Shown here in pieces: positions 2 to 61,246 of a stretch of DNA of 64,000 nt. Made by a program: the position numbers and the translations under genes. The notes under the pieces are model-generated. The model saw only the letters and a program-made list of their open reading frames with translations, was not told where the DNA came from and made no database searches. The stretch is taken from assembly GCA_965199495.1 (NCBI GenBank), contig CBDASK010000003.1, positions 3,904,001 through 3,968,000 on the forward strand. The letters are read 5' to 3'. The stretch is from Abditibacterium sp. GTDB lineage: Bacteria; Armatimonadota; Abditibacteriia; Abditibacteriales; Abditibacteriaceae. The stretch's first letter is position 1. Each line of letters begins with the position of its first letter.

Positions 2-2233
2 CCGGTTCAATGGTTGCCCTACGCCGCGTTTTTGCCGTTCGAAGAAATGCGCGCCCGCATCGAGCCACTTATCGGCGATCCCGACCCTGATAATCGGAGC
101 GCGGCCTTGTCGGTTTTAATTCAATCGTTGCGTTATGATTTCAATCGCGCCGACGAAATTTTGAAACTGCTCGAAGCGCGCCGCAACGAGCAAGACCCCA
201 TTCGCGCGGCGATTTTTTTAGCATTGTCGCAACTGCCGTCCTCGCGCTGGAATGCGCTGCAGTTGGAAGCGGTCGCGCGCCTCATCCAATACGGTTTGGA
301 CGCGCGCGATTTATCGGCGACGACCGCCAGTTGGATGCAGCAATTCGTTGTTGGCGTTTTGCCGTTCGCGCCCGCTTGGGCCGCGAAACTTCTGGCATTA
401 TTGGTCAAAGAACGCGGGCAAATCTCGATTATGCGCCTCGAAGACCGCTTGAGTGACGCGCAAATGCAGGTCGTCGGCGCGGCGTTGTTGCCGGTTTTGC
501 GCGCCTGGCTCGACCGCGAGCGCAACCCGTTTACCAGCGCGTTTGCCGCGCTCGGTCGCCGTCTGCGTCATTGGGACGAAGGCGCCGCGTTGTTAATGCA
601 GGCCGCGAAAAATGGCCCGACTTACCTCGCGTCGAGCGCCGCCATCTTGTTGGCTAAACATCGCCGCGATGACTTCGCGAAGTTGGTTCCGCAACTGCTC
701 AAACTCGATAAGTCTTGGGGCACGCAAGCGCCGGTTTACAATTATGTTAGTCACAAAGCGCCCAATTTGCTGACGCAACCGATGCTGGGACGCGACAAAG
801 TCAGAGGCAAATTTTGGACGGGCGGCACGCGTTTCGTTTTACCGATTTATGATAAGTTCGCGCATTGGACGCCCGCGCAGCAACAAGATTTCGCGCTCAC
901 TTTGACCGAAGTAATTCGCGATGCGGGCCGCGACTTGCCCGCCGCGATTCGTTGCATCGGCACGCTCGCCAATTTGCCCGACATCGCGCCCAATGCGCTG
1001 ATTCAACTCGCTTCACTGGATAACGAAAAGCTGGCCCTCCGCGAAGCCGCATTGCGCAGCCTTTCGCATCTCGACGCGGGCGGCGGCGTGGCTGCTCTCA
1101 TCGAAGCCTTGGACGACGAACGCGCGCGCATCGCGATTTACGGATTGCGCCGCGCGCTCATCGAAATGCCCGCCGCGCGCGCCCTCGAAATTTTGCGCGA
1201 AGTGCCGCTCCAAAAAGTCACCGTCGCCAAAGAAGTCGTGCGACTTTTGGGCGATTTAAATTCGAGCGCCGCCTTCGATTGGCTGCTCGAACTGTCCGAG
1301 CGCGATTTGCATCGCGATGTGCGCGTCGCGATTGGGCGCGCGTTGTGGGAGCATTTGGACGACGCGCGCACCTGGCCGATTTTGCAAGACGCCGCGCGCT
1401 CTAACGATGCCGCCGTCGCGCAAATGGCCGCGCGCACGACGGCGCCGCGCCTAAGTCAAACCGCCAAAGCGCGATTGGCGGCGCTACTCGCTGAACTGAT
1501 GCGCTATCCCGAAGCGCGCGTGCGCCTGGAAGCGATGGCGAATCCGTCGCTCTCGCTATTGGAAACCAGGGGCGATTTGCGCGCGGGCTTGTTCGACTCT
1601 CTCGCATCCGAATTGCCCGACGAATATCGCGCCGCCGCCAACGCGATTTGCCAGAGCGCCGCCGCGCGCGATGCCGATTTAGCGGCCCAGGCGATTGCCC
1701 AACTGTTGCCGCGTCGCCGCGCTTTGAAAGAAGTGTTGGAAATGCTCGGTCACCAAATCACCTCGCGCCGCCATTTCGCCAATGTGACGCGCGCGATTTT
1801 GGATGAACTCGCGCGCGACCCTCTAACCACGCAAGCCACAATCGCGTTTGCCTACGCCGGATTATCGCGCGAAGATTGGGCGATTTGGATCGAAAACGCG
1901 CTCGATAATAGAACATTGCACGCCGACGCGCTGCATGCAGCCACGGCGGTGCTGTCGGACGAATCTAATGCCTCGCGTGATGGCGAATTGTTGAATCGTT
2001 GGCGCGATTCCAAAGCGCCCGAACTGCGCCGTCTGGCGCTGGCCAATTTAGTCGGCGCCGCGCAAAGCGGACGCGGCTGGGACGACGAACGATTGGCGCA
2101 ACTCGAACAGTTTCGCGCCGACGAATCGCTCTTGGTCGCCGCCGCCGCGCAATGGACTTTCGTGGGCGACGAAAATGTCGAAGACGATGATCCCGAAGTC
2201 ATGGAAAGCGATGACGATTTGGGATTGTTTTGA
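2..2233 (+). CDS. HEAT/ARM-repeat alpha-solenoid protein, 5'-truncated by the window edge
   Basis: Frame is open from position 2. Ala/Leu/Arg-rich helical repeats with HEAT-like motifs (DPDPDNRSAAL, LREAALRSL, HRDVRVAIGRAL, PEARVRLEA) and an acidic tail. Confidence 0.7.
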   Translation, partial: PVQWLPYAAFLPFEEMRARIEPLIGDPDPDNRSAALSVLIQSLRYDFNRADEILKLLEARRNEQDPIRAAIFLALSQLPSSRWNALQLEAVARLIQYGLDARDLSATTASWMQQFVVGVLPFAPAWAAKLLALLVKERGQISIMRLEDRLSDAQMQVVGAALLPVLRAWLDRERNPFTSAFAALGRRLRHWDEGAALLMQAAKNGPTYLASSAAILLAKHRRDDFAKLVPQLLKLDKSWGTQAPVYNYVSHKAPNLLTQPMLGRDKVRGKFWTGGTRFVLPIYDKFAHWTPAQQQDFALTLTEVIRDAGRDLPAAIRCIGTLANLPDIAPNALIQLASLDNEKLALREAALRSLSHLDAGGGVAALIEALDDERARIAIYGLRRALIEMPAARALEILREVPLQKVTVAKEVVRLLGDLNSSAAFDWLLELSERDLHRDVRVAIGRALWEHLDDARTWPILQDAARSNDAAVAQMAARTTAPRLSQTAKARLAALLAELMRYPEARVRLEAMANPSLSLLETRGDLRAGLFDSLASELPDEYRAAANAICQSAAARDADLAAQAIAQLLPRRRALKEVLEMLGHQITSRRHFANVTRAILDELARDPLTTQATIAFAYAGLSREDWAIWIENALDNRTLHADALHAATAVLSDESNASRDGELLNRWRDSKAPELRRLALANLVGAAQSGRGWDDERLAQLEQFRADESLLVAAAAQWTFVGDENVEDDDPEVMESDDDLGLF

Positions 2234-2329
2234 TGCTAACTTCGCTACTCGTAGAATTAAAATATGTTTTGACCTCCAGAAACCACCATTTTTAGTGATT
2301 TGCGTTTTACTTTTGCTGGAATATAAGCG

Positions 2330-3974
2330 ATGCTTTCACTCGTCTCTCCCCTCATGCGCACTTTGATTCAGGTTCATTTCTGGCTACTTTCTTTCGGCTA
2401 TTTCTGGATGAGCATTCCTTCATCGCAGTTCATTCGGGGCGTTATGACGTATGGCATTCCGGTGCTGTCGTTAATCGAGATCGTTCGCGAAGCGTGCTTA
2501 CTGTGGATATTTCCCAAATGGGCGCGCCGTTTGGAGGCTTTGGGACGGCATGAAAAAGCCCTTGCGCTGATGAGGCGTTCGGTGCGGGCATTCACGCCGC
2601 TAAGTGGCAGACATACGCCCTCCAAATTGCATCTTTACGCGATGGGCTTGATGTGCGAAAACGCCGGGCGTCACGGCGAGGCGAGCGAAATTTGGAGCGA
2701 AATCGCGAGCCAAAGCGGTCTGGCGACCGGGTTCGAGGCTGGCGTGCGCGGTCGTTTGGCCAACTCTCTGGAACAGGAGGGCGATTTACAAGGCGCCATC
2801 CGCCAACGCGACATCGCGCGGCAAAAGTTGGAACGAGCCACGAATGCCGGACGGGAAAATTGGTCGGTTTTACTGCAAAAAGGCAAAAGGGCGCGCGAAG
2901 CCAACGATTTTTCGCAGGCCAGCGCGTTTTTCCAACGCGCCTTCGATGATCCCAAACCCAGACTGACAGAGGCGCAACGTCCCGTCATTCAAATCGAGAT
3001 AGCCAGTCAATTAGCGGTGGCGACTCAACTCAACGGCGAATATGCGCGTGCCGCAAGCGCCGCGCGTCAGGTGGCTGCATTGGCCACGACGCCAGCGATG
3101 CGCGCGCAGGGCTGGCGCTTGTTGAGTAACGCTCTTTTGGCGCAGAACTCTTTGGACGAGGCGCTTGAGGCCACGCGCGCGGCGCTTGCGGAAAGTCAAA
3201 AGCTGGGCAACCAACAAATGGTGGCACACACCCGCGCACAATGCGCTCATCTGCTGCTGATGATGGGGCATATCGAGGCGGCGCTGCGAGAATGCGAAAT
3301 CGCCATCGCGTTGGAGCCGGATTCTGCACGCTTCGCGTTTCATGCGGCGGCCAATTGTCATTCTTTGCAGGGCAACTATGGGAGCGCGCGCGAATATATT
3401 GAACGCGCGCCAAATCAAAACTCATTCCTCGCCCGCCGATGCACGGTTGATGCGCGGATCGCTTGACATCGAAAATATGGCCATTGAAATCAACGCTGCC
3501 CAATATGAAGACCCTGCGCGCGCGCAGGTCGCGTGGGATTTGTTGCAACGCGCCAAACAGAATCTGGTCGGGTTCGAGCGGTTATCGCTCTGGCTACGCG
3601 CCGCCGAAGTCGCGATTCGGACGAATTTAGGCGACTTGGAAGGCGCGCGTGAAGAATGCGAAGCCATCGCGCAGCAACTTCAGCCCTATCACGATGACAC
3701 GGCCACACTCAGCGTGATTTGGACTTATTTAGCCCACACTTATGTGCAACTTGGCGATTGGAAAGAAGCGGCGCGTTGGGGGCAACGCTATTTAGATTCG
3801 CCCTTTATCCGTCCGGTCTACCGCGCCGATACTTTGTGTGAATTGGGCGCGTGTCAACACCATTTGGGCAACGAACAAGCGGCTCGCGCGTGTTGGCAGC
3901 AAGTCTTGGATTTAAATATTCCCATCGCCGCCACCCAGCGCGCCCGCGACTCTCTTGCGGGCACGACAGGTTAA
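2330..3974 (+). pseudogene. Membrane-anchored TPR protein split by a frameshift near 3401-3412
   Basis: ORFs 2330-3466 and 3342-3974 both carry TPR-like helices. Adding one CG to GAACGCGCGCCAAATC gives a continuous ERARQIKTHSS. The N-terminus is hydrophobic. Could be a sequencing error. Confidence 0.65.
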
Positions 3975-3993
3975 GCTCGACTTACGAGCAGCG

Positions 3994-4527
3994 TCAAACC
4001 AGACCGCTACAAAGTTGTGCGGTTGTATGACTCATTCCTTTTTTCCACTCGAAATTGGCGAAAAACTCGATGCGATTGCGTTCTAATTCCTGCACCGTCA
4101 AATAGCCGGGAAAATAACCCGTCGGCTCCAAACCAAAGCGCGCGAAGGTGCCGCAGATGTTTTTGGCGCGTCGCGTTGGGTAACAAATCGCCAGTGGTTG
4201 CTCCCAATTATGATGCGACAACAGTCGAATCGCCGCGAACAATTGCGACAGCGAAACTTTCCAAAATGGCGGATCGCAAATGATCACGCCAAACGTTTCA
4301 TCGCGCCAGAGCGGGCGATACAAATCGAATTGGGCGTAATTTTCGTCTTCGCTAAATCGTTCGTCGAAATCTAAAACGCGATGCGGGATGTTGCGTTGGC
4401 ACAAAACGCGACCGAGCATCGGCGCGCACAGGGCACACGGGTTGGCGAAACGAGCAGCCACGTCGGCCAGTTCGTCCAAAGTTTGAGCGTCCCAGAAATA
4501 TTGTTCCCATTCGTGGCGTTCGAGCAT
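3994..4527 (-). CDS. Putative methyltransferase, N6-adenineMlase (EEF1AKMT1/N6AMT2-like) family
   Basis: Motifs QYFWD-T, CAPM, LDFDERF, FDLYRP and ICDPPF resemble this family's motif order. The start was moved to ATG 4527 because the longer ORF begins inside the REP repeat. Confidence 0.6.
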   Translation of the reverse strand: MLERHEWEQYFWDAQTLDELADVAARFANPCALCAPMLGRVLCQRNIPHRVLDFDERFSEDENYAQFDLYRPLWRDETFGVIICDPPFWKVSLSQLFAAIRLLSHHNWEQPLAICYPTRRAKNICGTFARFGLEPTGYFPGYLTVQELERNRIEFFANFEWKKGMSHTTAQLCSGLV

Positions 4528-4573
4528 GATTGTAGGTCTTTCCTTAGAATTTGCCGTAAAATGACAATTTACT

Positions 4574-4676
4574 CTGTTCAGTTTTCCGTTCGTAGTCTCG
4601 CCGTAAGGCGAGTTCATAAGGCAAATATCTGAATAAACTCGCCTTACGGCGAGACTACGAACGGAAAACTGAACAG
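4574..4676. repeat. REPIN, left of RAYT (inverted pair of GTAG-TCTCGCCGTAAGGCGAG REPs)
   Basis: Perfect 41-bp inverted arms, 4574-4614 and 4636-4676. Each has GTAG followed by the hairpin CTCGCC-GTAA-GGCGAG. Confidence 0.9.
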
Positions 4677-4742
4677 GGAAAGTTGGACATTTCGCTCGCC
4701 TGAATTTAAATATTGTTGATCTGCGCTCAGATTGAAACGTAA

Positions 4743-5384: not shown

Positions 5385-5422
5385 ATTATCCTTAAAGTCC
5401 AAGTTCGCCCGCAATTGTATCT

Positions 5423-5594: not shown

Positions 5595-6608
5595 TTACAG
5601 ACCTTTGCTGGCCATGTAGTTGATCAAATCAGCCACGCGGTTGGAGTAGCCCCACTCGTTATCATACCAGCTCAACACTTTCAACATGTTGTCGCCCAAA
5701 ACCATCGTCGAAGGCGCGTCAATCACGCTGGAAAGCGGGTTGCCTTTGTAATCCACCGAAACCAACTCTTCCTGTTCGACGCCCAAAATGCCTTTCATCG
5801 CGCCATCGGCGGCGGCCTGAAACGCTTCGTTCATCGCCTGCGCGGTGACGGGTTTGGTGGTGTTGACGACCAAGTCCACAATCGAAACCGTCGGCGTCGG
5901 CACGCGCATCGAGCCGCCGTTGAGCTTGCCTTTGAGTTCGGGAATGACGAGGGAAATCGCTTTGGCGGCGCCGGTCGTCGTCGGGATGATCGACTGCGCG
6001 GCAGCGCGGCTGCGACGCAAATCCTCGTGAACCTGATCGGCGATGCGCTGATCGTTGGTATACGAGTGAATCGTGTTCATCAAACCATGTTCAATGCCAA
6101 AGGTATCCAAAATGACTTTCGCCATCGGCGCCAGACAGTTGGTGGTGCAGCTCGCATTCGAGACAACATTGTGTTTGCTCGGATCGTAAAGCTCGTTGTT
6201 GACGCCCATCACGAAAGTGGCGTCCTCGTTTTTGGCAGGAGCCGAAATCACGACTTTCTTGGCACCCGCTTCGATGTGCGCGGCGGCTTTGAGGGCGTCG
6301 GTGAAAAAGCCGGTGCTTTCGACGACGAAATCCACGCCGACATCGCCCCACGGAATCTGCGCCGGGTTGCGCTCGGCGAAAACGCGGACGTGCTCGCCGT
6401 CCACAATGAAGCCATTCTCTTCCAACTCGACTTTGTGCTTGAAGTGGCCGTAGTTCGAGTCGTGCTTGAGCAGATGCGCGTTGGTCTTGGGATCCGAAAG
6501 ATCGTTGATAGCCACGACATCAATGTCGTTGCCATAGCGCTCGGTCAGAGCGCGGAAAGTGATGCGGCCAATGCGACCGAAGCCGTTGATGCCTACTTTG
6601 ATTGCCAT
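5595..6608 (-). CDS. gap: Type I glyceraldehyde-3-phosphate dehydrogenase
   Basis: INGFGRIGR, active site [17 protein letters not shown]. Confidence 0.98.
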
Positions 6609-6823: not shown

Positions 6824-7852
6824 TTATTTTTTTGCGATGTCCACAACATCGGATTGTTGCGCGCCCATCACCGGAGTCAACGTGGCTGTTGCGCGTGGCT
6901 TGCGGTTCTTGAGCAGTTGATCCACCAAAACGCCGATGAGAATGACCGCGCCCATCACGGTGAAGTTGAGGCTCGACGGAATGCCCAACAGGTTGACCAG
7001 GTTTTGCAAAACCTGCAACAGTGCTGTGCCCAACAAAATGCCGATGACGCTGCCTTCACCGCCACGCAGCGAACAGCCGCCCAACACCGCTCCAGCGATA
7101 CCATACAACTCGTAGAAGTTGCCGTGCGTCGCGGGCGAAACCGAGTTGGTGTAGAACGCGATTAAAATGCCCGAAATCGCCGCCAGCAAACCGCCGATCA
7201 CATAAGTCATCGTGACCACGCGATTGGTGTTGATGCCGCTATAACGCGTGGCGGCCTCGTTGCGACCAACCGCATAAAGATAACGCCCGTAAACGCCGCG
7301 ATGCAAAAACAGCGCGACGATGGCCGCGATGATGATCATTAAAATGAACGATGTCGGCACGCCAAAGACTTTGCCCGTCATAAAGGCGCGCAAACCCTCG
7401 AAGCCTTCGGCTTGGCCAAAACCTTTGGTTTCGTCATTGGCGACGAAACGAGCCACGCCGCGATAGAACAGTAAGCCGCACAGCGTCACCACGAACGGTT
7501 GCAACTTGGCGCGCGTGATGAGCAGACCGTTAATCAAGCCGACGGCGACGCCCAAAATCAGAATCATCGCGATGGCGAGGGGCCAGGCGAATTTCTTTTC
7601 GGTCAGCATCATCGCCAGCAAAACGCCTTCGAGCGCGAACATCGAGCCGACGCTCAAATCAATGCCGCCGGTGATGATAATCAGGCCCGCGCCGATGGAA
7701 AAGATGCCATACATTCCAATCAGCAGCGCCAGATTGCTCAGGTTTTGCGGGAGCAAGAACGTGCGTCTCGGATCAATGACCGTTGTTACTACGCAAATGA
7801 GCAGTAGTAAAACGAAAATTCCAAACTCTTTTTTAGTAAAAATACTTTTCAT
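6824..7852 (-). CDS. Monosaccharide ABC transporter permease (RbsC-like)
   Basis: GGIDLSVGS, GRYLYAVGRN, YELYGIAGAVLGG and multiple TM helices. Confidence 0.92.
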   Translation of the reverse strand: MKSIFTKKEFGIFVLLLLICVVTTVIDPRRTFLLPQNLSNLALLIGMYGIFSIGAGLIIITGGIDLSVGSMFALEGVLLAMMLTEKKFAWPLAIAMILILGVAVGLINGLLITRAKLQPFVVTLCGLLFYRGVARFVANDETKGFGQAEGFEGLRAFMTGKVFGVPTSFILMIIIAAIVALFLHRGVYGRYLYAVGRNEAATRYSGINTNRVVTMTYVIGGLLAAISGILIAFYTNSVSPATHGNFYELYGIAGAVLGGCSLRGGEGSVIGILLGTALLQVLQNLVNLLGIPSSLNFTVMGAVILIGVLVDQLLKNRKPRATATLTPVMGAQQSDVVDIAKK

Positions 7853-7876: not shown

Positions 7877-9403
7877 CTAAGCCGCGATGGCCTCGGTCGA
7901 GCGCGCCACGGCCAAGCGCATCACTTTTTCTTCGTCGGCCTCTTCGCGCGATAATGAGCCGGTGATCTGGCCTTCGCACATCACGATGATCCGATCCGAT
8001 ACGCTCAAAACTTCTTCCATATCGCTCGAAATCATCATCACGACCACGCCGCTTTGCGCCAAATTGCGCATGATTTTGTAAATTTCGGCTTTGGCGCCCA
8101 CGTCAATGCCGCGCGTCGGCTCATCGAAAATCAACATTCGCGGTTTGGACGAAAGCCACTTGCCCAGCACAACTTTCTGCTGGTTGCCGCCCGACAAATT
8201 GCCCGCGCGCGTCATCACGTCGGGCGTTTTGATGCCCAGCGATTCTTTTTGCTCCTGCGCGATGCGAGTTTCGCGCGCGGTGTTGACCAGTTGAAGCGGC
8301 CCGCCAACCGAATTGCGGCTCAGCATCGGCAAGGAGATGTTATCGCGAATCGGCCAATCGAGCAACAGGCCGGTCTCGCGGCGGTCTTCGGGCACCAGAT
8401 AAATGCCGTTATTAATTGCGGTTTGCGCCGAGCGAACGTGAATCGGTTCGCCGCCACCAATCGAAATTGTGCCTTCGAGACCCGGTTCAACGCCAAAGAG
8501 CGCCTGCGCGACTTCGCTGCGGCCCGCGCCGACCAATCCGGCGAAACCCAAAATTTCGCCGCGCCCGATGTCGAACGAGATTTTCTGCTTGGGATAGCGC
8601 GGTGTGCGCAGGTTGCGCACGTTGACGAAGCGATCCATGATGCCTTTGGTCGGCGCCGATTTTATCCGTTCCAAATCGCGCCCGACCATCAGCGAAACCA
8701 TGTTGTCGTGCGTGATTTTATCGCCCTCTAATTCGCCCGCGTTGGCGCCGTCGCGCAGAGCCACGACGCGGTCGGCGATCTGCGTGATTTCGCCCAGACG
8801 ATGCGAAATGTAAATCACCGAAACGCCCTCGGCGCGCAGTTCCTTAATGACGGCCAGCAGACGGTCGGTTTCCTGCAACGTCAAGCTCGAAGTCGGCTCG
8901 TCCATGATGACGACGCGCGCTTCCTGCGACAGCGCCTTGGCGATTTCGACCATCTGTTGTTGCGCCAACAGCAACTCCGATAAAGGCGTAGTCGAGCGAA
9001 AGTTGAGATGCAAACGATCCAGATATTTCTGCGAGTTCGCGTGAATTTTGCGTTTGTCAATCAGGTTGAGCGGCCCGCCAGTGCGCGGCTCGCGACCCAG
9101 ATAGATGTTGCCAGCCACGTCGATGTTATCGAGAACGTTGAGTTCCTGATGCACAAAACCGATGCCTTGATCAATCGAGTCATTGACGTTATTGATGACG
9201 ACTGGCTTTTCGTTCACGAAAATCTGGCCGCCGTCGGGCTGGTGAACGCCGCCCAACACCTTCATCAGCGTGGATTTTCCGGCGCCGTTTTCGCCGATAA
9301 TGGCGACGATTTCGCCCGCGCCAATCGAAAACGAAACGCCGCGCAGGGCGCGCACGCCGCCGAAATTTTTCTCGATATTCGCGACGCGTAAAAGAGGAGT
9401 CAT
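7877..9403 (-). CDS. Monosaccharide ABC transporter ATP-binding protein (RbsA-like)
   Basis: GENGAGKST, MDEPT, LSGGNQQKV, DEPTRGIDVGAK; two ABC domains. Confidence 0.95.
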   Translation of the reverse strand: MTPLLRVANIEKNFGGVRALRGVSFSIGAGEIVAIIGENGAGKSTLMKVLGGVHQPDGGQIFVNEKPVVINNVNDSIDQGIGFVHQELNVLDNIDVAGNIYLGREPRTGGPLNLIDKRKIHANSQKYLDRLHLNFRSTTPLSELLLAQQQMVEIAKALSQEARVVIMDEPTSSLTLQETDRLLAVIKELRAEGVSVIYISHRLGEITQIADRVVALRDGANAGELEGDKITHDNMVSLMVGRDLERIKSAPTKGIMDRFVNVRNLRTPRYPKQKISFDIGRGEILGFAGLVGAGRSEVAQALFGVEPGLEGTISIGGGEPIHVRSAQTAINNGIYLVPEDRRETGLLLDWPIRDNISLPMLSRNSVGGPLQLVNTARETRIAQEQKESLGIKTPDVMTRAGNLSGGNQQKVVLGKWLSSKPRMLIFDEPTRGIDVGAKAEIYKIMRNLAQSGVVVMMISSDMEEVLSVSDRIIVMCEGQITGSLSREEADEEKVMRLAVARSTEAIAA

Positions 9404-9477: not shown

Positions 9478-10632
9478 CTAACGCGCCGAAAAACGGTAAA
9501 CCGTCGTCTGACGGTAAGTTTGTCCGGGACGCAGCGTTGTCGTCGGATACGCCGGATGGTTGGGCGAATCGGGATAGTGCTGCGCTTCCAACGCGAAGCC
9601 GCTACGCTTGGGATACAAACGCCCATATTTGCCATGCAGACCATCCAAGAAGTTACCGGTGTAAAGCTGCACGCCCGGTTCCGTCGTGTAAACGCGCAGT
9701 TCGCGCCCCGAAACTGGTTCGCGCACCGTCACGCCCAGTTTTAATTGACCGCTTTGATTGCGCAACACGAAGTTGTGATCGTAACCCGCGCCGTTTTTCA
9801 GTTGGGTGTTATCGTCGTTGATGCGCGCGCCAATGCGGTGGAAAGTGCGGAAATCGAACGGCGTTCCGGCCACGCGCGCCAATGGGCCAAGCGGAATCGA
9901 AGTCGGGTCAATCGGCGTATAGCGGTCAGCGTTGATTTTGACTTGATGATCCAAAATCGTTCCCAGACCGGCGCCGCGCAAGTTGAAATACGAGTGATTC
10001 GTCATGTTCAGAAGCGTGGGCGCGTCGGTGACGGCGCGATAATCAATGCGCAGTTCGTCGTCGTTTTGCCACGTATAACGCACGCGCACATTGACGTTGC
10101 CGGGATAGCTATTTTCACCCGCAGGCGAAAACAGCGTCAATTCCAGCGCCGGGCCGTTTTTGAGCATCATCGGCTTGGCGTTCCACAATTGTTTGTCGAA
10201 GCCCTTAATGCCGCCGTGCAGATGATTGACGCCGTTATTGACGGCCAATTTATAAGTTTTGCCATCGAGCGTGAAGCGGCCTTTGGCGATGCGATTGGCG
10301 TAGCGCCCGACGAGCGCGCCAAAATACGGACTTTTGTCCTCGTAACCTTTGAGCGTATCGAAGCCCAGAACGACGTCGCCGCGCACGCCATTTTTGTCGG
10401 GCACGCGGATCGCGGTCACGATGCCGCCGTAGTTGGTGATTTGCACCTGCGAGCCGCTCGCGTTGCGCAAGGTGTAAAGCGTGGCGACTTTGCCATCGGG
10501 CAACGCGCCAAAAGGCGCCTGAGTAATCGCGGCCTTTTCCATCATCGGCGCGGCATGGACGAATGAGGCGCCCAGTGCAGTGGCAGCCACGGCGACGGCG
10601 GGCATCGTGAATTTGGGGGAGAATCGAAGCAT
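9478..10632 (-). CDS. galM: Aldose 1-epimerase (mutarotase) with N-terminal signal peptide
   Basis: GRYANRI, HLHGG, TNHSYFNL, GYDHNF, EAQHYPDSPN. Signal-like AVAVAATALGASFVHA. Confidence 0.92.
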   Translation of the reverse strand: MLRFSPKFTMPAVAVAATALGASFVHAAPMMEKAAITQAPFGALPDGKVATLYTLRNASGSQVQITNYGGIVTAIRVPDKNGVRGDVVLGFDTLKGYEDKSPYFGALVGRYANRIAKGRFTLDGKTYKLAVNNGVNHLHGGIKGFDKQLWNAKPMMLKNGPALELTLFSPAGENSYPGNVNVRVRYTWQNDDELRIDYRAVTDAPTLLNMTNHSYFNLRGAGLGTILDHQVKINADRYTPIDPTSIPLGPLARVAGTPFDFRTFHRIGARINDDNTQLKNGAGYDHNFVLRNQSGQLKLGVTVREPVSGRELRVYTTEPGVQLYTGNFLDGLHGKYGRLYPKRSGFALEAQHYPDSPNHPAYPTTTLRPGQTYRQTTVYRFSAR

Positions 10633-15215: not shown

Positions 15216-16712
15216 ATGATCAACCAACTCACCATCAACGCCGACCAGCCCGGCGCGGTTATTTCGCGCCACATTTACGGGCATTTCGCCGAACATTTGG
15301 GCCGTTGCATCTACGAGGGTTTCTGGGTCGGCGAAGACTCGGAGATTCCCAATACGCGCGGCATTCGCAACGATACCGTTGCGGCACTGCGCCAACTCAA
15401 TATTCCCAATCTGCGCTGGCCCGGTGGCTGCTTCGCCGACGAGTATCATTGGATGGACGGCATCGGCCCGCGCGCGAACCGTAAGACCATCGTGAATACG
15501 CATTGGGGCAACGTGATCGAGAACAATAGTTTCGGCACCCACGAGTTTTTCGATTTGTGCGAAATGCTGGGCGCGCAGCCGTATATTTGCGGCAACGTCG
15601 GATCGGGAACGGTGCAGGAGATGGCCGATTGGATCGAATATATCACCCATCCCGGCGGCTCGGCTATGGCCGATTTGCGCAAACAGAACGGGCGCGCCGA
15701 GCCGTGGAAACTGCCGTTTTTCGGCGTCGGCAACGAAAACTGGGGCTGCGGCGGTCATATGCGCCCCGAATTTTATGCCGACCAATATCGGCGCTACCAA
15801 ACTTATGTGCGACAACATGGCGACGAGAAAATCACCAAAATCGCGGGTGGCGCCAACTCCCACGACACGAACTGGACGGAAGTTTTAATGGAGCGCTCCG
15901 CCAATTACATGGACGGGCTTTCGCTGCACTATTACACCATCGCGGGCAACTGGGAAAACAAGGGCAGCGCCACGCAGTTCGACGAAACCGAGTATTTCGC
16001 GACGCTGCGCAATTGCCTGAAAACCGACGAGTTGGTGAGGCGCCACAGCACGATCATGGACAAAACCGACCCCGCGAAACGCATCGGCCTGATCGTGGAC
16101 GAGTGGGGCGCTTGGTGGAACGTCGAGCCGAACACCAATCCCGGATTCTTGTATCAGCAAAACAGCCAGCGCGATGCCCTTGTCGCCGGGCTGAGCCTCA
16201 ACATTTTCAACAGCCACGCCGACCGCGTCAAAATGGCCAACATCGCCCAGACCATCAACGTTTTGCAGGCGATGATTCTGACCGATGGCGCCCAAATGTT
16301 GTTGACGCCGACCTATCACGTTTTCGAGATGTATAAAGTGCATCAGGACGCGCGATTGTTGCCGCATTTTTTACAGTCCGCCGATTACAGCCACGGCGAC
16401 GCGACGGTTCCCGCGCTCAACGCTTCGGCCTCGCGCGACGCCGATGGGCGCGTTCATATTTCGCTGTGCCACACCGATCCGACGCGCGAAGCGACGTTGC
16501 AAATTGACGTGCGCGGCCTCGAAATAAGCGGCGCAACGGGCCGCGTTTTGAACGCTGAAACCCTGCAAAGTCACAACACTTTCGAGCAACCCGACGCGTT
16601 AAAGCCGCGCGCTTTGACCGAGGCACAGTTGCGACATAGAGGCGAGCGTCTGAACGTAATTTTGCCGCCCGCCTGCGTCGCGGTTCTGACGCTGGAAAGC
16701 CGAGGGCGTTAG
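15216..16712 (+). CDS. Alpha-L-arabinofuranosidase, GH51
   Basis: [53 protein letters not shown]. Confidence 0.95.
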
Positions 16713-49332: not shown

Positions 49333-49776
49333 ATGAAACACTTTTCGATTCGCCACGGCCTGTGGCTTGCTTTGCTGGGCGCGCCCGCCCTCGTTGCCGG
49401 TTGCGGCGGCGGCAACGGCGCCGTGGCTGTGCCCGCGATCCCGGTTTCCGTCCCGCCGTTCACGCTGCAAAACGGCCAGCGCGCGACCTTAAAATTCAAA
49501 ATTCGCGGCACCGCGCTCGACGGCACCATCGCCATCGCCGACGGTGCGCAGGTCGAACCGAATCCGCTGCGCCGCATCCCGCCGGGCACTTATCCATTTA
49601 ATGGCACCTTCACGCCACCGCGCGGCTACGAAATCGGCGGCACCTTTGGCGCGGTTGGCGATTTTACTGCGCGCGGCGATTTGCCGACGACTTCGCAAAC
49701 CGGCACTTATACCTTCGTTTTTCAAGGCCAAACGTTGAGCGGAACATTGCCAATCATCGCCAATCCCATCGGTTGA
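49333..49776 (+). CDS. Lipoprotein, domain A only
   Basis: Lipobox LVAGC-GGG, FTLQNGQ...GTFT-PRG...GTYT. Confidence 0.7.
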   Translation: MKHFSIRHGLWLALLGAPALVAGCGGGNGAVAVPAIPVSVPPFTLQNGQRATLKFKIRGTALDGTIAIADGAQVEPNPLRRIPPGTYPFNGTFTPPRGYEIGGTFGAVGDFTARGDLPTTSQTGTYTFVFQGQTLSGTLPIIANPIG

Positions 49777-52651: not shown

Positions 52652-53488
52652 ATGAGACTCATTTTATTTATCGCCTTTCTGCTCGTGACAACCGCAGCCA
52701 CGGCGCCAGTGCGCGCCGATTATGGCGCTGATTACAAACTCATTCTCAAGCTCGAAACGGCGATGCGTAACAGCGATGTGCCCGCCGTCAAGACGCTGGT
52801 CGCCGCGCCTAATTTTCGTCCTCTGCTGGCCATCAACGCCGATTATCCGACGGTCTTCGAGCGCGCCCTAAGCAACGAACAACCCGAAATCGCGCGCGCC
52901 ATGATGAACAGTGCGGGCTGGAAACGCACGCGCTGGAACGCCCGCAATACGGCCATGCCACTGATTCACGCGGCTTCTTGGCCCAGTCTGTTCCCGATTC
53001 TGCGCGATTTATCGCGCCAGAAAGGATTCGATCTCAACACGCCCGGCGCGCCCGACGGCGAGTTCCCGTTGATTTTCGCCGCCCAAAAAGGCAATATGCC
53101 CGCTCTCAAATGGTTGATCAAACAGCCGCAAGTGCAACTCAACCGGCGCAACAACGCGGGCCAAAACGCGCTTTATGAAGCCGACGAAGAAGCGACCGAT
53201 TACTTGCTTTCGCTGCATCGCATGGACATCAACGCGCGCGACAAATTCGGCCAAACCGCCCTTCACAGCGCCGCAGGACTTCGGCAGTGGCGCAAAGTGC
53301 GTTCGCTTCTGGAAGCGCCCGGCATCGATCCCAACATCCGCGACAACAACCGCGTGCCGCGCACCGCGCTCGATTTCGCGCTTTCGCGCAACAGCTTTGA
53401 TGTCGTTGAGGCGCTGATGGAAAGCCCCAAAGTTCGGAGAACGCCCGCGCAAATCGCGCAATTCAAACGCATGGGCGGCGCGCTTTAA
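52652..53488 (+). CDS. Secreted ankyrin-repeat protein 2 (paralog of 1)
   Basis: Signal ends VRA. FDLNTPGA--GEFPL-FAA is shared with the upstream gene. GQTALHSAA. Confidence 0.82.
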   Translation: MRLILFIAFLLVTTAATAPVRADYGADYKLILKLETAMRNSDVPAVKTLVAAPNFRPLLAINADYPTVFERALSNEQPEIARAMMNSAGWKRTRWNARNTAMPLIHAASWPSLFPILRDLSRQKGFDLNTPGAPDGEFPLIFAAQKGNMPALKWLIKQPQVQLNRRNNAGQNALYEADEEATDYLLSLHRMDINARDKFGQTALHSAAGLRQWRKVRSLLEAPGIDPNIRDNNRVPRTALDFALSRNSFDVVEALMESPKVRRTPAQIAQFKRMGGAL

Positions 53489-53514: not shown

Positions 53515-56500
53515 ATGAAAAAACTCATCATTCTCGCGCCCGCCTTGCTGCTCTGCGTCGGCGTGGCTGCTGTGTCGCCGATGCCGCTTGCGCTCGCCAA
53601 AGATGCGCCCGTCAAAAATTTCGACGCGAAATTAGATGCGCCGCTCATGGCGGCCATAGGCGCAGACAACGCGAGCGAAGTGCGTAATTTGTTGGCGCGC
53701 GGCGCCAATCCTAACGCGCACGCCACCGACTCAACCGGCGCGACCGCTCTGGGAAGCGCGGCGGCCAAGAACACTGAAATCGTGAAACTTCTGGTCGCAG
53801 CGGGCGCCGACTTGGAAAAAGGCAACGCTCTGGGGCAAACGGTGCTGCTGTTGATGGCATTGAATGATCGCACTGACAACATTATCTATCTGGTGCAAAG
53901 CGGCGCCAAAATAGAGAACGGCCAATATCAAGGTTTGACGCCATTAATGATCGCCGCCACCGCAGGCAAAACGGATTCAGTGCGCCGTTTGTTGCGTTTG
54001 GGCGCCAACGTCAACGCGCGCGATAACAACAATGCCACCGCGCTTATTTATGGTTCGGCCAAGACCATCGCAGGGCAGGGCAATCTCGAAGTCGTGAAGA
54101 TTTTGGTCGAAGCGGGCGCCGACTTGTTCGTTGTGTCCAAAAACGGCCTCGATGCTTTGGCGATGGCGAAGAAACATAATTTGAACGACATCGCCAGTTA
54201 TCTGGCGACCAAAACGAACCTTGATATCGAGCTTTACAACGCCGGTTTGAACTCTGCCAAAACCAACGGCAAGCCGCAAGATGATTGGCAAATCGCGCGC
54301 GACTTACTCGATAAAGGTGCCAAAGGCTATTTCACCGGTTCAGGTGACAGTGGTTACACCGCGTTAATTTGGTTTTCTTCTGATACCAAAAACTTTGATG
54401 AGACGACAGCCAAACGTTTAATCGCGGTTTCCGACCTTAACGTGCAAAACAAAAACGGCCAAACTGCTCTTCATGTGGCGGCGGCGTTTGGCAACGAAAA
54501 AATGGTGGCGTTGTTAATCGCGGCGGGCGCCAACTTATCAACGGTTGATAAATCTGGCAAAACGCCGCTCGGCGACGCGCAGAAATTCCCCGCCATCGCC
54601 ACGATGCTACGCAACGCGGGCGCGAAGAATGGGACTAACGCCGCGTCGTTGGATGAAGACCTTTATAACGCTCTTGTTGTTGTCTTCCAATCGCTCAATG
54701 CGGATAAAACCATCTCCGAATCGAGTTGGGCACCGGTTGAAAAGTTGTTGAACGCGGGCGCCAGTGGTCGTTTTACCTTTGAAGGCGTGACTGCGTTGAT
54801 TGTGCTCGCACAAATTGATGAAGGCGTCCCGCTCAAAGACGAGATGATCCAGACGCTCATCGCGCGCTCCGACATCAACGCGCAGGATGAGAAAGGCAAT
54901 ACGGCTCTGCTCCTCGCCGCAGATTATGACAATCGCAAGATAGTTGAACTGCTCATCGCGGCGGGCGCCGATTTGAGTCTGCGCAACAAAGATGGGGAAA
55001 CAGCGCGCGAGGTCGCTGAGTTTGCTGGTGACGCCACGCTCGAAACTTTCGACAAAGCCGTCGCCAACCGTCCCGCGACAAATGCGCCCGCCAAACCGAA
55101 CGTTACGGCGCCGGTTGCGCAAGCGGACAAAGACAAGGCGCTGTTTGAGTTGGTCACCAAAATCTTTGTCGCTGATTTTACGGGTGAAACCGTTCCTTCC
55201 GGCGATTGGGCGAACGTCGCAAGTCTGCTGAATGCGGGCGCTACGGGGCATTATGTCAGCGCGGGCAAAACCGCGTTGCTGAGGCTCGCGGGCTTTAAAA
55301 AAGTCCCGCTCCGCGACGAGGTGCTGGCAACGCTCATCGCGCGCTCCGATGTGAACGCGCAGGACGAAGACGGCAATACGGCGTTGATGCAGGCGGTGCT
55401 TTATAACAATCGCCAGATATTCGATCTGTTGATGGCAGCGGGCGCCGATGTCAATCTGCGCGATAGCGGTGGCCTCTCGGCGGGCGACATCGCCGATAAA
55501 ATGAAAAATCCGACTCTAAAAGATATTCTCGACAAAGCCGCTGCCAATCCCGCCAAAACTGTCGCGCCGCCGACAGCAGCCACGCCGCCCGCCGTAGCGA
55601 ATGGCAACGCCAACGCGCCCGCCAAAACGCCGGTTGCGAAAACCCCGGTTGCGGCCACGCGCGCGCGCCGCGCGATGTTCGCGGCCAATCGCGCGTTTGC
55701 GCCCGACGAATCGAGCCGCGCCATTGCCAATCGCGCGTTCAATCCCACTATCGGCGTGGACGAGGTGCGATTGGGCTGGGGCGTTCAAGACGACTGGGAC
55801 TTTAGCAAACCGTTGCCCACAAAAAGCGTGACCAACGTGAGAATGCCCAACGATTGGATGCACGAGCGCGAGCTGACGAACCGCGAAATTCGTCAGAATC
55901 CCGACGACATCGTGGCGCGGCTCAGTCGCGTGAGCACGGAGCCTTTCATCGTTCCGGTGATTATGAGTCCCGAAGACGCCGAGAAATTTGTCTTCGGCAC
56001 GAGCGGAGAACAGGCGAAGTTTCTTTGGTATCAATTCGAGGAACTGCTGAAGAAAGGGCCGGTGCCCGCGCGAACGATAATGCCGGTCGTCAAGGGATTG
56101 GGCGTTGACAAATACGCGCCCAACGCCGACGATTTGCGGCGCGGCGATAGCGCCGAAGCCAAACGCATCAGCGAACGCGTCAGCCATCTGAAGACGGCGC
56201 TCAAGCCGTTCGAGTCGGTCGAGGAGGTCTCGTCGCTCGCCAAAACGGTGGAGCGATTGTTGGACGGCAAAGTCGCGCTTGCCGAGTTTTATGCGGCGCC
56301 AACCGACGGCAAAAAGCGCTTTAACGCGCAGACCTATGCGGCGGGCGCCTCCCGATTCGCCGCGCAGACGCCCAATGCCGAGTTGGTTTCGCTGTTAGCC
56401 GTCGCCGCCAGCGTCGCGCTGGGTGATGTGACGCCCGCGCAATTGCCCGCGCGCGCGGCGGCGTTCAAAACCGCACATTACGCGGACGATTGCGCGAGCG

Positions 56501-57285: not shown

Positions 57286-57307
57286 TTGGGCCGCGCATGG
57301 ATTCGCA

Positions 57308-59605
57308 ATGCCTTTTTCAAACACCATGAACAAAATTATCATGCTCGCGCCCGCACTGTTGCTTGGCGCGACAGTCGCCCGCGCGCAACCCGCGCGCAAT
57401 CCGGCTAAAGCCAATGCTGTGGCGCCGAAGGTTACCGACCAAGACGAAGAACTTTATAGCGAAATTGACGAACTCTCCGCCAGCGATGATCCTCTGAACG
57501 CGGATTGGTCACGGGTGGAAGAGTTGCTGAACGCGGGGGCTAACGGGTATGCCACCTTTCAAGGCGCAACCGCGTTGATGTTAATGGCTTTTGTCGGCGA
57601 AGAAACCCCGCTCAAGGATTCAAGAATTCAGTTGCTTATCGCGCGCTCTGACATCAACGCGCAGAATAAACACGGCAGGACGGCACTGCATCAAGCCGCA
57701 TTTTACGGCGGTCTCAAGCTGATGAAAATGTTGATCGCGGCAGGCGCCGATCTCAATCTGCGCGATGAAGATGGCAAGACGGCGCGCGATCTGGCCAGCA
57801 AATATAAAATCACGCTGGAACAGTTTGATAAAGCCGTCGCCAACCGGCCCACAACCGCACCAGCCACGCCGCCCGCAACCGACAGACCCACGCGTCCCGT
57901 CCGCCCGCCGCGCGTGGCGGATGGCGTGGCTGCATCGCCTGCGCGGCCTCGTCCGCCCAGACGAGGCGACCGAATTGCCGCCGCTGGCGATGTGTTGGCC
58001 AGTCCTCCGTTTTTCACGCGCAACCGCGCGATTGTCAGCGGAATGAACGATCCGTCTTCGATGAAGGCGAACTATCTGCCGCTTTTTACAACTCAAGTGC
58101 AGATGCAGTTGGGCGTCGAGCCGTTTCCACCCAAAGAGGGCGAGCAGCGTTCGCTTTATTCGACGTTGCTCCCCAGTTACCATTCGTTTGCTCTGGCAGC
58201 GGCATCGCGCCAGTTCAAAGACGAACCCGAAAACAAAGTCGCGCTCGCCCAGCGCGCGGCGCAGTGGCCTCATACGTTTCGTATGGCGCTCAATTCCGAT
58301 TCGCTGGGAAAATTAGTGGAATTGGGCGCCATCAATCGCCAATACACCGAGCTGGATATGCGCGGCGTGATGGCAGGGCCGCTCACGCCCGAAATGTTTG
58401 GGCCGGTTTTGAGAGCCTTGCAAGTGGAAGATTACGCGCCTCATCCCGCGCAAATTCGCAGCGGGCGGGCCGCCGAAGTCAACGAGCGCATTAAGGCGCT
58501 CAAAGCGGCGCTCGTGGCGTTTACGCCCATCGTGCCCTCGGCCCAAGAAACAGTGATGGTTCTCGACGCCAAAGCCGCGATTTCGCGGTTGAGCGATGCG
58601 CCAGACGACGCCGACAATCGCGCCAATGCCGAAGCGTTCCTGGTGCGGGCGCGCGAATTTAGCGCGGCCAATTCCAATTCGCCGACCGTCGGTTTGATGG
58701 CGCTGGCGGTCGAGGCGGCGCTGGGGAAAATCCAGCTCACAGAGTTAAGCGCGCGCGCGACGACTTTCAACTCGCCCGGCTTCGCCGAAAATTGTGCGGG
58801 CATTTCGCTGTTTCTAAACGATCTAAACCAGAACGAGAAGGCCAAAATCTGGTGCCGCGCCTGGAATGCCGTGGCTGCTGCGAGCGCGGACGCGGCCAAC
58901 AGTCCGCATCTGATGCTGGCGCAGGCGCAGATGTTGGCGCCGAGCCGCGAACGTTTCGAGTTGCTGAAAAAGTGCGCCATCCCGTTCTCATTTGACGACC
59001 GCTACAAAAACCTGGCGGTCAGCCAGTTGGTCTCCGATGCCAGACAATTCGGCGATCGGGCGTGGCAACGCCGCGCGCTCGAAGAAGCGGTGATGAGCAT
59101 CGCCATGCCTTATACCTGGCAAGATTACGCGCAATTCGCGCTCGAAGATGGGCAGTGGGGCAACGCCTTCAACGCCAACCGTATCATCGTGGGGTGGCAA
59201 GAGCGAACGCCCGATTCACCGATTTCCGATGAGCAACGCGCCGCCGTCAGTCCGCTCGATCCATTGCCTGCCTCGGCGATTCGGCCCGTCATCAGCCGAC
59301 GGATGGACGCGCGGCTTAAAGGCGCGTTTTTGATGTTGAAATTGGGTTACTTCGAAGCCTCGCGCGCCGAATACGCGGGCGCCATCGGCGAATCTTTGCC
59401 CGAAGATGCGGCCCAAGAAAAGAAAGACAAAGCCGACACCATCGGCGCCGATTTCGAGACGACGTTTCTTTTGCACCGCCGCTTCTTGCGCGCCGAACTG
59501 GCCAAAACCCCCGACGACGCCGATTTGAAAGCCGCCCTGGATCGTCTGGTCGCGCTCAAAGTGGACGCCGCCCAACACGAGAAATGGGTGATGCCGATTC
59601 TGTAA
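57308..59605 (+). CDS. Secreted ankyrin protein, shorter paralog of 53515-57285
   Basis: One LIARSDINAQ module and a shared C-terminus (DARLKGAFLMLKLGY, KTP-DA-LKAALDRL). Confidence 0.82.
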   Translation: MPFSNTMNKIIMLAPALLLGATVARAQPARNPAKANAVAPKVTDQDEELYSEIDELSASDDPLNADWSRVEELLNAGANGYATFQGATALMLMAFVGEETPLKDSRIQLLIARSDINAQNKHGRTALHQAAFYGGLKLMKMLIAAGADLNLRDEDGKTARDLASKYKITLEQFDKAVANRPTTAPATPPATDRPTRPVRPPRVADGVAASPARPRPPRRGDRIAAAGDVLASPPFFTRNRAIVSGMNDPSSMKANYLPLFTTQVQMQLGVEPFPPKEGEQRSLYSTLLPSYHSFALAAASRQFKDEPENKVALAQRAAQWPHTFRMALNSDSLGKLVELGAINRQYTELDMRGVMAGPLTPEMFGPVLRALQVEDYAPHPAQIRSGRAAEVNERIKALKAALVAFTPIVPSAQETVMVLDAKAAISRLSDAPDDADNRANAEAFLVRAREFSAANSNSPTVGLMALAVEAALGKIQLTELSARATTFNSPGFAENCAGISLFLNDLNQNEKAKIWCRAWNAVAAASADAANSPHLMLAQAQMLAPSRERFELLKKCAIPFSFDDRYKNLAVSQLVSDARQFGDRAWQRRALEEAVMSIAMPYTWQDYAQFALEDGQWGNAFNANRIIVGWQERTPDSPISDEQRAAVSPLDPLPASAIRPVISRRMDARLKGAFLMLKLGYFEASRAEYAGAIGESLPEDAAQEKKDKADTIGADFETTFLLHRRFLRAELAKTPDDADLKAALDRLVALKVDAAQHEKWVMPIL

Positions 59606-59632
59606 GTTGAATCCCCGAACTCCCCAAATTTC

Positions 59633-60571
59633 ATGAAAAACCTCAAACTCACCGCGCCCATTCTGGCGCTCTCGCTCGCCGTGGCTGCATCAGCCTTCGC
59701 GCCCGTCGCATTCACGCCCGTCGCGTTCGCGCAAGATGACGAAACGCCCGCGCCCGTTCTGACGCCGACGCAAATCGCGTGGCAGAAAATTCTCAAAGAC
59801 AACGACATTGAGGCCGCCCGTCTCAAAGTCAAAGAACCCGGATTCGATCCGCTTTTGCCGTTGCCCTACGAATTCAGCCCGCTTTTGGGCGAAGTTTTGA
59901 GCGCCCACGAAACCGAAATCGCCGCGCTAATCATCGAAGCCGCGCCGACCGAGGCTTATCTTAGCAACGCCAATGCTCTGGGTTATCTGGGCCAAACCGA
60001 AAATTTGCCGGTTTTGAAAGTGTTGCTGGCCAAACCGAAATTTGATCCCAACCAATTACTCAGCGGCGACCCGTTGCTGTTCGCGGTTGTTCAGGCCAAA
60101 AACGTCGAGGGCGTTAAAGTGATGTTGGCCGACGCGCGTGTTGATGCGGGCGCGCGCGGCGAAAGCGACAAAACCGTATTATTCCCGCTCGCGGGCACGC
60201 ATTCGACCGAACTCGCGCAATTATTTTTAGCCGACAAACGCGTCGATCCCGCCGCCAAAACTACCGGCGAAAGCACCGCGCTCCACGAAGCCGCTGGCTC
60301 GAATGACGCCGAAATCGTGACCGCGCTTTTGGCCGACCCGCGCGTGGATGTCAACGCCGCCAACGACCGGGGCATTTCGCCGCTGATGGTCGCGGCGACT
60401 ACCAAACTCGATATGGTGCTTTTGCTGCTGCGCGATCCACGCGTCAAAATCGGCGCCGACGAAGTGCAACGCATCGGCGCGTTGGTGCAGCGCAACGAAG
60501 ACGACGCGGCGAACGCCGATGTTATCGCCGAAATCAAAAAGTTGGTCGCGGTGCGTTTCGCCAACAAATGA
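59633..60571 (+). CDS. Secreted ankyrin-repeat protein 5
   Basis: Signal ends AFA. TALHEAA, GISPLMVAA, LAD-RVD repeats. Confidence 0.8.
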   Translation: MKNLKLTAPILALSLAVAASAFAPVAFTPVAFAQDDETPAPVLTPTQIAWQKILKDNDIEAARLKVKEPGFDPLLPLPYEFSPLLGEVLSAHETEIAALIIEAAPTEAYLSNANALGYLGQTENLPVLKVLLAKPKFDPNQLLSGDPLLFAVVQAKNVEGVKVMLADARVDAGARGESDKTVLFPLAGTHSTELAQLFLADKRVDPAAKTTGESTALHEAAGSNDAEIVTALLADPRVDVNAANDRGISPLMVAATTKLDMVLLLLRDPRVKIGADEVQRIGALVQRNEDDAANADVIAEIKKLVAVRFANK

Positions 60572-60682
60572 AGTCCCGCGCGAAAATCAAATTCGTCACC
60601 GCGAAGTCTGACTTCGGCGAAATGAAGTAAGGTTCTGGCGGCGCGAGCGGGGGCGCGTAAGTCCAGCGAAAAGGAGAAAACT

Positions 60683-61246
60683 ATGGATATTTCAAATTGG
60701 ATGTGTTGGGAAGGCGGCGTTGATTTAGTCGCGCTGTCTGCCCCGAACTTGCCGATGCCAAACGTCATCGTGCATCTGGCGCGCATGGTTCACACGCCTC
60801 TCGATTCGACGCCTGCGGGCATCGTGATGTTGCCCGACTGGGGCGACGCATCTGCTCCGCCGCGCGTGCTGGGTTTTGTCGCGGGCGATGCTCAAATCGG
60901 CGCCTATTTTGGGCCGCATATCTTCGCCGATACGCCGTTCGAGAACGCGCCGGTTTTGGCCGCGCAGATTGAAATGACCATCGGCGACGATGCAGCCACG
61001 GCGCGCGTGCGCGTCGGCGGTTTCGACATCGAAGTGCGCATGAGCGAACTTTCGGCGCCCTACAAAGTTGACCGCAACGCGGGCGATGGCAACGATTTGC
61101 CGTTTTTCCAGCAGGGCGTCGAGCGTAGCGCTGGCCGTGTCGAGTTGAGCGTCAACGGTCAAGTCGTTCCGCTCACAATTCCATCCGTTGGCCTAACGGG
61201 TGGCCCCGCCGCCGTTGTGGCGCCATGCGGATTGTATGGGCGTTGA
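60683..61246 (+). CDS. Hypothetical protein
   Basis: AAGGAG before ATG and host-like codon usage. No recognised motif. Confidence 0.65.
   Translation: MDISNWMCWEGGVDLVALSAPNLPMPNVIVHLARMVHTPLDSTPAGIVMLPDWGDASAPPRVLGFVAGDAQIGAYFGPHIFADTPFENAPVLAAQIEMTIGDDAATARVRVGGFDIEVRMSELSAPYKVDRNAGDGNDLPFFQQGVERSAGRVELSVNGQVVPLTIPSVGLTGGPAAVVAPCGLYGR

Follow-up and report, generated by a model that had tools for sequence, protein, structure and literature searches.

The question raised by this locus is why a 64-kb stretch of DNA (the window) on the 4.72-Mb main contig (C3) of an Abditibacterium sp. genome (Armatimonadota; here G000) should carry the 8-mer CAGCCACG exactly 41 times, 21 times on the forward and 20 times on the reverse strand. 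Sequence-specific tags for DNA uptake are well documented in two families of proteobacteria, and the highly iterated palindrome HIP1 has been without explanation for thirty years. An earlier note on the window had counted about 21 and about 20 copies and likened the word to an uptake sequence; the exact count agrees, and every example copy lies at the position it gave. Here, we show that CAGCCACG is real, selected and lineage-specific, and undescribed in the literature searched (mostly open-access), in which no publication on this or related motif words of the lineage was found. Its copies are spaced separately on the two strands, and we lean towards regarding it as a candidate self-DNA signal that resembles uptake sequences, is connected with natural transformation and is read strand-specifically.

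Results

The window would be expected to hold a mean of 2.25 copies by dinucleotide shuffling (100 shuffles, largest 6) or 3.3 under an order-3 Markov model, so the strong excess claimed earlier stands, although the GC content is 56.8% and not near 59%. All 41 copies fall in open reading frames (ORFs). The extension GCAGCCACG(G/C)CG, described as frequent, fits 18 of the 41 and the broader CAGCCACG(G/C/T)CG fits 33. As had been supposed, GCG (52%) and GCC (33%) dominate the alanine codons genome-wide over GCT (10%) and GCA (5.5%). Named proteins most similar to the window's PheS bear mostly the labels Abditibacterium or Abditibacteriaceae, with 63-91% identity where the match is full-length, which makes Abditibacterium the probable genus.

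On the whole G000 chromosome there are 3,083 copies (1,558 forward and 1,525 reverse; 0.65 per kb), and CAGCCACG is the most over-represented 8-mer of the genome under the order-3 Markov model. The idea was to be given up if enrichment disappeared under a codon-preserving null. It does not: in the 3,633 genes called in this analysis (81% coding) there are 2,791 copies, compared with 261 ± 10 when synonymous codons are shuffled within genes, a 10.7-fold excess, and with 668 under a dicodon-conditional null. All six reading frames, when checked, are enriched (3- to 23-fold), and where the word could be written silently, 26-54% of the positions do carry it. The core is AGCCAC and the best form (a/t)gCAGCCACG(G/C/T)CG; 15 of the 18 one-off variants of AGCCAC lie below 1.0 of expectation (range 0.14-1.28), three first-base variants and CAGCCACC are enriched 2.3-3.3-fold, and N-CG directly after the word takes the enrichment up to 38-fold.

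Depletion in acquired DNA, another check proposed beforehand, is seen in each of three places. On contig C1, a plasmid to judge from its RepA, MobA, coupling protein and ArdC, the 24.7 kb contain 2 copies (0.08 per kb); contig C2, by its portal, S49 protease and tape measure genes a phage, has 6 in 64.6 kb (0.09 per kb); and a 141-kb island has 0.24 per kb. Among viral contigs, a 14-base pattern scan (80 of at least 119 loci; 54 extra copies, 673 kb) gave no dense carrier, and a scan for the putative capsid protein of C2 gave no relative. The 22 hand-picked maintenance, competence and polymerase genes carry 0.92 copies per kb against 0.73 for coding DNA, on 48 copies only.

The copies do not follow the direction of replication, with 1,492 on leading (48%) and 1,591 on lagging strands (52%; p=0.08). 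A control word, which we take to resemble the FtsK-orienting polar sequences (KOPS), is polarised 297:82 and reverses its orientation twice, close to dnaA (2.03 Mb) and at about 4.35 Mb, so that the replichores are real. CAGCCACG has no such flip at origin or terminus, in agreement with the earlier note, and we rejected a replichore-polar, KOPS-type motif. The GC skew of G000 is weak although the KOPS-like words are clearly polarised.

The spacing of the copies bears on how they are read. Adjacent copies alternate, with 1,940 opposite-orientation and 1,142 same-orientation neighbours, and at distances of 30-600 bases same-orientation pairs occur at 0.32 of expectation compared with 0.95 for opposite-orientation pairs. 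The same-orientation deficit reaches approximately 1 kb, with a decay length of about 750 bases. It is kept when labels are shuffled (471 versus 723 ± 18) and when sites are redrawn among silent opportunities (391 versus 875 ± 31 for same-orientation pairs, 832 versus 842 ± 30 for opposite). In a screen of 1,542 abundant 8-mers the median is 1.25, that is, clustering, and the ten most self-excluding words all overlap CAGCCACG, which rules out a generic avoidance of close direct repeats. Spacing is more even than random, the evenness lies within each orientation, and perfect copies exclude the enriched variants, CAGCCACA apart, but do so only along their own strand. The spacing is such that a single copy every 1-1.5 kb is enough for each strand, with the strands counted separately. 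We found no earlier report of such orientation-specific spacing in the literature searched; section 13 of PMC1852404 covers close pairs only.

Since exclusion is almost entirely limited to the same strand, some reader needs one copy per strand. Four toy models, run once each as illustrations, gave 0.58/0.53/0.46 for a double-strand receptor, 0.70/0.44/1.19 for one-sided import, 1.0/0.93/1.12 for additive action and 0.35/0.92/1.14 for per-strand saturation, and only the last reproduces same-strand exclusion. From the spacing and these models we infer a reader that is polar or single-strand specific, and the spacing speaks against a simple double-strand surface receptor being the complete explanation.

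A weaker form of this per-strand spacing is shown by a proven uptake signal, the uptake signal sequence (USS) of Haemophilus influenzae. Eight of 201 genomes of an unrelated order, presumably Pasteurellaceae, each contain over 1,200 copies of the USS core, and five of them were put through the spacing test. A same-orientation neighbour 100-400 bases on was found at 81, 112, 84, 76 and 565 sites and an opposite-orientation neighbour at 126, 171, 147, 131 and 618 sites, respectively; the corresponding numbers in G000 are 87 and 264. The asymmetry is significant in four of the five (p 0.002 to 4e-5), with pooled values of 0.52 and 0.85.

In orthologous genes most CAGCCACG sites align without gaps. 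Across 131 orthologous genes of word-free congeners, the word is kept at 2 of 94 aligned sites (8 further sites are unaligned), and amino-acid identity is 46% at motif codons and 60% in the flanks. Against the word-bearing congener G011, 13 of 17 sites are kept (random 8-mers 42%), and against G004, 42 of 169 (random 27%). Because retention in G004 is low while density is similar, individual sites turn over and density is held. The word arises via point substitution and is kept genome-wide for its DNA letters.

Thousands of copies of CAGCCACG are found in only 3 of 301 genomes of the phylum, G000, G004 and G011, which a quick ComEC tree (22 rows, seven family genomes not included) groups as a single clade inside a wider set of word-free congeners. 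Seven further genomes of the Abditibacteriaceae carry other words, giving dialects of five words in 10 of 27 family genomes. Six of the seven have palindromes of 8-12 bases with an AGTACT core at 0.7-1.2 per kb, in and between genes: in samples, GCAAGTACTTGC in G014, TCGAGTACTCGA in G020, G024 and G042, and GAGTACTC in G022, and, from two sites seen, CAAAGTACTTTG in G018. AGTACT itself counts 2,813-4,733 in these six and 1-285 in the other 21. The palindromic dialects contain GTAC, TCGA or TGCA cores, and they too self-exclude (0.21 and 0.47 below 500 bases in G020; 0.73, 0.45 and 0.66 below 1 kb in G014). The word of G017, TCGACCGTACT, is asymmetric. The other 17 genomes were scored word-free from whole-genome counts of two words and samples of 4-96 kb (G041 from its AGTACT and CAGCCACG counts), which a weak word could escape; a gapped-motif search in samples of 15 of them found no dispersed word, the repeat of G001 being local. 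Half of the AGTACT sites of G005 (9/18) lie on one contig, C98, which may be DNA of a relative that has the palindrome or else a binning error. G011 is likely a mixed bin: a PheS segment on its C45 is 100% identical to that of the window, and its C33 bears an 88% copy.

Unpaired copies in two relatives repeat the orientation effect in small numbers. In G004 there are 11 same-orientation pairs at 100-700 bases versus 23 expected and 20 opposite versus 22 (at 100-1,000 bases, 17 versus 35 and 23 versus 34), and for the own word of G017 3 same versus 11 and 13 opposite versus 10. About half of the G004 copies are intergenic and within longer inverted repeats, 26 of 139 G014 copies lie at the centre of hairpins with at least 10 extra pairs, and 296 of 415 sampled G017 copies form inverted pairs, several with A- and T-tails, which, in the single 20-kb locus scanned, yield the terminator-like hairpins with the highest scores. 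Such hairpins, together with a transposase-like gene of the type associated with repetitive extragenic palindromes (REPs) in the window, would suit an origin of the word as a by-product of REP or terminator element spread, or else of mutational bias, codon or peptide preference or close-direct-repeat avoidance. In G000, however, 2,791 of the 3,083 copies are in genes with unrelated flanks, and the screen of 8-mers singles out CAGCCACG. A codon or peptide artefact was rejected, as the enrichment outlives the codon, dicodon and synonymous-opportunity nulls. The by-product explanation is largely refuted already, and we give it hardly any credence.

A polar reader at this range could also serve replication. 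Replication restart or gap filling might require, every 1-2 kb along each strand, a strand-specific loading or priming site like those of primosome assembly; such a site would be read in one direction, at a range similar to the length of Okazaki fragments. However, there is no leading/lagging skew despite clearly polarised replichores, the word is absent from 17 of 27 family genomes as sampled, its sequence changes wholesale between genera, and plasmid and phage manage without it. We therefore consider such a site very unlikely.

The machinery for transformation is in place. A check for competence genes, proposed with the first description of the word, finds comEC (DUF4131, Competence and lactamase domains), comEA and dprA intact in G000 by Pfam, with intact minor-pilin-like genes and a pilB-pilT-pilC-pilD-like operon accompanied by six pilin-like or associated genes, as assigned by sequence motifs. 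ComEA has no obvious extra domain. Word-linked residues in ComEC were sought and judged unpersuasive, with only 2 alignment columns splitting word-bearing from word-free genomes.

AddA is found in 10 of 10 word-free congeners, in none of the 10 word-bearing genomes and in none of 7 word-free genomes of other genera. G000 has only one match to UvrD-family helicases, and no RecB/AddA/AdnAB-type helicase was found in it. It does encode a 1,421-residue PD-(D/E)XK nuclease with a Dna2/Upf1-type helicase (C3:4111365-4115630), a possible replacement for AddAB in end resection. Matches to the Dna2-like gene turned up also in G004, G011 (an 83-residue fragment), G017 and the word-free G016; the remaining 22 genomes gave none.

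These observations bear on a Chi-like role. Chi is a short oriented word of RecBCD/AddAB, and CAGCCACG is likewise short, asymmetric, apparently read in one orientation and, as a putative self marker, sparse on foreign DNA. In a canonical Chi we would not expect the balance of 48% leading to 52% lagging, the strong short-range self-exclusion or the missing AddA in all 10 word-bearing genomes, and this version was rejected. A polar repair signal inside the cell would instead have a nuclease-helicase other than AddAB/RecBCD, the Dna2-like enzyme being one candidate, stop its degradation on first reaching a copy in the proper orientation. Breaks caused at random by desiccation or radiation have two ends and would need both orientations independently, and therefore no replichore skew and per-strand tiling are expected, with the exclusion as seen. 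The word appears on a branch without AddAB (AddA in 0 of 3 word-bearing congeners), all three of these have the Dna2-like gene (one by the 83-residue match) and none of the 10 word-free congeners does, and, according to parts of bioRxiv 2024.09.10.611283, unmethylated HIP1 raises recombination independently of addAB. However, the AddAB contrast is a single evolutionary event, with AddA also missing from the seven genomes of other genera that are word-free; a search of the six palindrome genomes gave no Dna2-like gene, whereas G016, without a word, has one; no RecB/AddA/AdnAB-type helicase was found in G000; and the host's phage C2 has not acquired the word. Chi-type enzymes work over longer ranges, for which approximately 1 kb is short. 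On this evidence we think a Chi-like signal unlikely.

Methylation, which the earlier note had raised along with nucleoid-protein binding, gained no support, and neither did the latter. A methylation mark, on one strand for the asymmetric word and on both for palindromes, could direct mismatch repair or license uptake, a kind of role that has been proposed for HIP1 and demonstrated for Campylobacter RAATTY. Every daughter duplex would then need a site of its own orientation no more than about 1 kb away. Such a mark predicts tiling per strand at this distance, repair in E. coli declining near 1,000 bases (passages in PMC4390886), and G000 has mutS and mutL and many methylases, while the palindromic dialects have the GTAC, TCGA or TGCA cores. 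However, no methylase tracks the words, with one methylase profiled family-wide and the others compared in five genomes. The solitary beta-class DNA methylase L173 (C3:1807695-1808468) has counterparts at approximately 60% identity in 21 of 26 relatives; it was rejected as the writer, being present in word-free genomes too and not found in G004. Among five word-bearing genomes compared, no single methylase family is common to all, some being shared by the three CAGCCACG genomes only, G014 has no C5 or D12 match, and synonymous divergence is not lower near sites. A methylation mark is thus a distinctly poor prospect.

Discussion

We favour, with modest confidence, the reading of CAGCCACG as a self-DNA signal tied to natural transformation. 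The type IV pilus, ComEA and ComEC would bring DNA in, with one strand entering the cell, and a sequence-specific step acting on that strand, be it strand choice, protection from degradation or DprA/RecA loading, would favour word-bearing strands. Favoured strands would recombine more, and new copies would spread wherever the same strand has none nearby; the palindromic words and inverted pairs of the relatives would serve both strands simultaneously. PMC12061091 cites a strand preference for single-stranded DNA uptake sequence (DUS) in gonococci.

The resemblance to DUS and USS noted earlier extends to most of their testable genomic hallmarks: a short asymmetric word present in thousands of copies, equal strands, even spacing and use of all usable frames (as described in sections of PMC2817400, PMC3630211, PMC1852404 and PMC7811141), origin by substitution, sparseness in mobile DNA and family dialects. 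Inverted pairs in hairpins occur in the relatives of G000 (G017; hairpin or intergenic in G014 and G004), and same-orientation exclusion in four of the five USS-rich genomes. In contrast, G000 belongs to another phylum, its word is unrelated in sequence and favours coding over intergenic sites, some Abditibacteriaceae dialects are perfect palindromes, and exclusion in G000 is almost purely same-strand.

Several results weigh against this reading. Intergenic DNA is poorer in the word than coding DNA (0.32 versus 0.73 per kb), unlike in DUS/USS genomes, and 17 of 86 close inverted pairs in G000 are intergenic (32 pairs expected in all). The tripeptide excess is modest, with Val-Ala-Ala at 1.39 and Ala-Ala-Thr at 1.08 per 1,000 residues, and genomes without CAGCCACG nearly overlap (0.82-1.32 and 0.60-0.99). 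There is no dip in synonymous divergence near sites, which is flat with signed distance against both G004 and G011. Competence genes are shared by word-free kin: comEC is in 24 of 24 family genomes searched, mutS-type genes are in 26 of 26 relatives, comEA and dprA are also in the one word-free genome tested, and minor-pilin orthologues are in both word-free genomes tested; comEC, mutS, comEA, dprA and minor pilins therefore do not discriminate. No receptor turned up in G000, where no search aimed at ComP/ComN was made. Known uptake receptors bind double-stranded DNA, and orientation has no effect on H. influenzae uptake, according to passages of PMC1939737; a double-strand receptor for which one copy is enough predicts exclusion in both orientations in the toy model. 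Among the USS genomes, the asymmetry of the densest falls short of significance (p=0.13), and of the four asymmetric ones two look closely related.

The AGTACT-core palindromes of six family genomes recall HIP1 (parts of PMC4390886, PMC5861425 and PMC13756078), which has been linked to transformation and to an AddAB-independent effect on recombination (bioRxiv 2024.09.10.611283, in part). CAGCCACG differs in being non-palindromic, palindromes being confined to G014, G018, G020, G022, G024 and G042, and none of the methylases compared in this family tracks any word. It is conceivable, though doubtful, that USS/DUS, the HIP palindromes and the Abditibacteriaceae words are one class of signal, read on a single strand after entry or at broken ends, which in this family would have originated or been altered on several occasions, among lineages that lack AddAB, and would have moved back and forth between an asymmetric and a palindromic form. 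If so, per-strand tiling of USS in Pasteurellaceae would reveal an unrecognised strand-specific step of classical transformation. From the weaker spacing seen there a definite prediction follows for a system that has been studied in depth. Spacing counted per strand offers an inexpensive way, applicable to any over-represented word, of testing how that word is read, and one family with asymmetric words, palindromes and word-free genomes is a natural comparison for finding the reader. The words may also be needed for transforming this poorly tractable phylum.

Further observations

Table 1 Positions of the CAGCCACG copies in the window, with strand and surrounding gene
Position	Strand	Location
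1087..1094	-	ORF 14-2233
1938..1945	+	ORF 14-2233
4455..4462	+	ORF 3994-4617(-)
5630..5637	+	GAPDH gene
6881..6888	-	sugar ABC permease gene
9112..9119	+	sugar ABC ATPase gene
10584..10591	+	5' part of aldose epimerase ORF
12269..12276	+	beta-galactosidase gene
14141..14148	+	beta-galactosidase gene
14529..14536	-	beta-galactosidase gene
16211..16218	+	arabinofuranosidase-like gene
16388..16395	+	same arabinofuranosidase-like gene as 16211..16218; rare close same-orientation pair
18342..18349	+	sugar ABC ATPase gene
18634..18641	-	sugar ABC ATPase gene
19654..19661	+	sugar ABC permease gene
19946..19953	-	sugar ABC permease gene
22526..22533	+	uracil-DNA glycosylase gene
22617..22624	-	gene 22577-23362
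25922..25929	-	gene 24363-26024
26305..26312	-	dioxygenase-like gene 26144-27043
27263..27270	-	gene 27245-27868(-)
27832..27839	+	gene 27245-27868(-)
30631..30638	-	CheB/CheR/PAS kinase gene
32325..32332	-	CheB/CheR/PAS kinase gene
33623..33630	+	gene 33435-34691
33898..33905	-	gene 33435-34691
35008..35015	-	gene 34901-37435
37033..37040	-	gene 34901-37435
39542..39549	+	gene 39079-40395
41466..41473	+	gene 40586-41899
43704..43711	-	gene 42472-45837
47414..47421	+	pheT
49422..49429	-	gene 49333-49776
52695..52702	+	ankyrin-like repeat gene 52652-53488
53562..53569	-	ankyrin-like repeat gene 53515-57285
55577..55584	+	ankyrin-like repeat gene 53515-57285
57861..57868	+	gene 57326-59605
57925..57932	-	gene 57326-59605; opposite copy 64 bases away
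58870..58877	-	gene 57326-59605
59680..59687	-	gene 59633-60571
60993..61000	+	gene 60701-61246

The REP-associated tyrosine transposase-like gene lies at 4743-5384 of the window (67.5 bits, cut-off 80) and is flanked by two near-identical long hairpin repeats without the motif (4575-5515); one 25-base hairpin arm has 4 copies in the whole of G000, all at 4575-5515. A row of ankyrin-like repeat genes, with family matches all below cut-off, occupies 50020-60571.

Elsewhere in G000, GTAGAGACACCGA (153 copies), GGGTCTTGTGAG (131) and GACGCGATAAATCGGCGTC (76) are probably REP-like families. Its main contig strongly avoids the palindromes CTAG, GTAC, CGGCCG, CCGCGG, CTCGAG, TTCGAA and GCCGGC, among others; GTAC is thus avoided here yet is the core of the relatives' palindromic words. 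An MjaI-family restriction-modification pair adjoins mutS directly behind. The 16S primer word is at 1.861 Mb (+) and the 23S word at 1.815 Mb (-), which suggests that the rRNA genes are unlinked.

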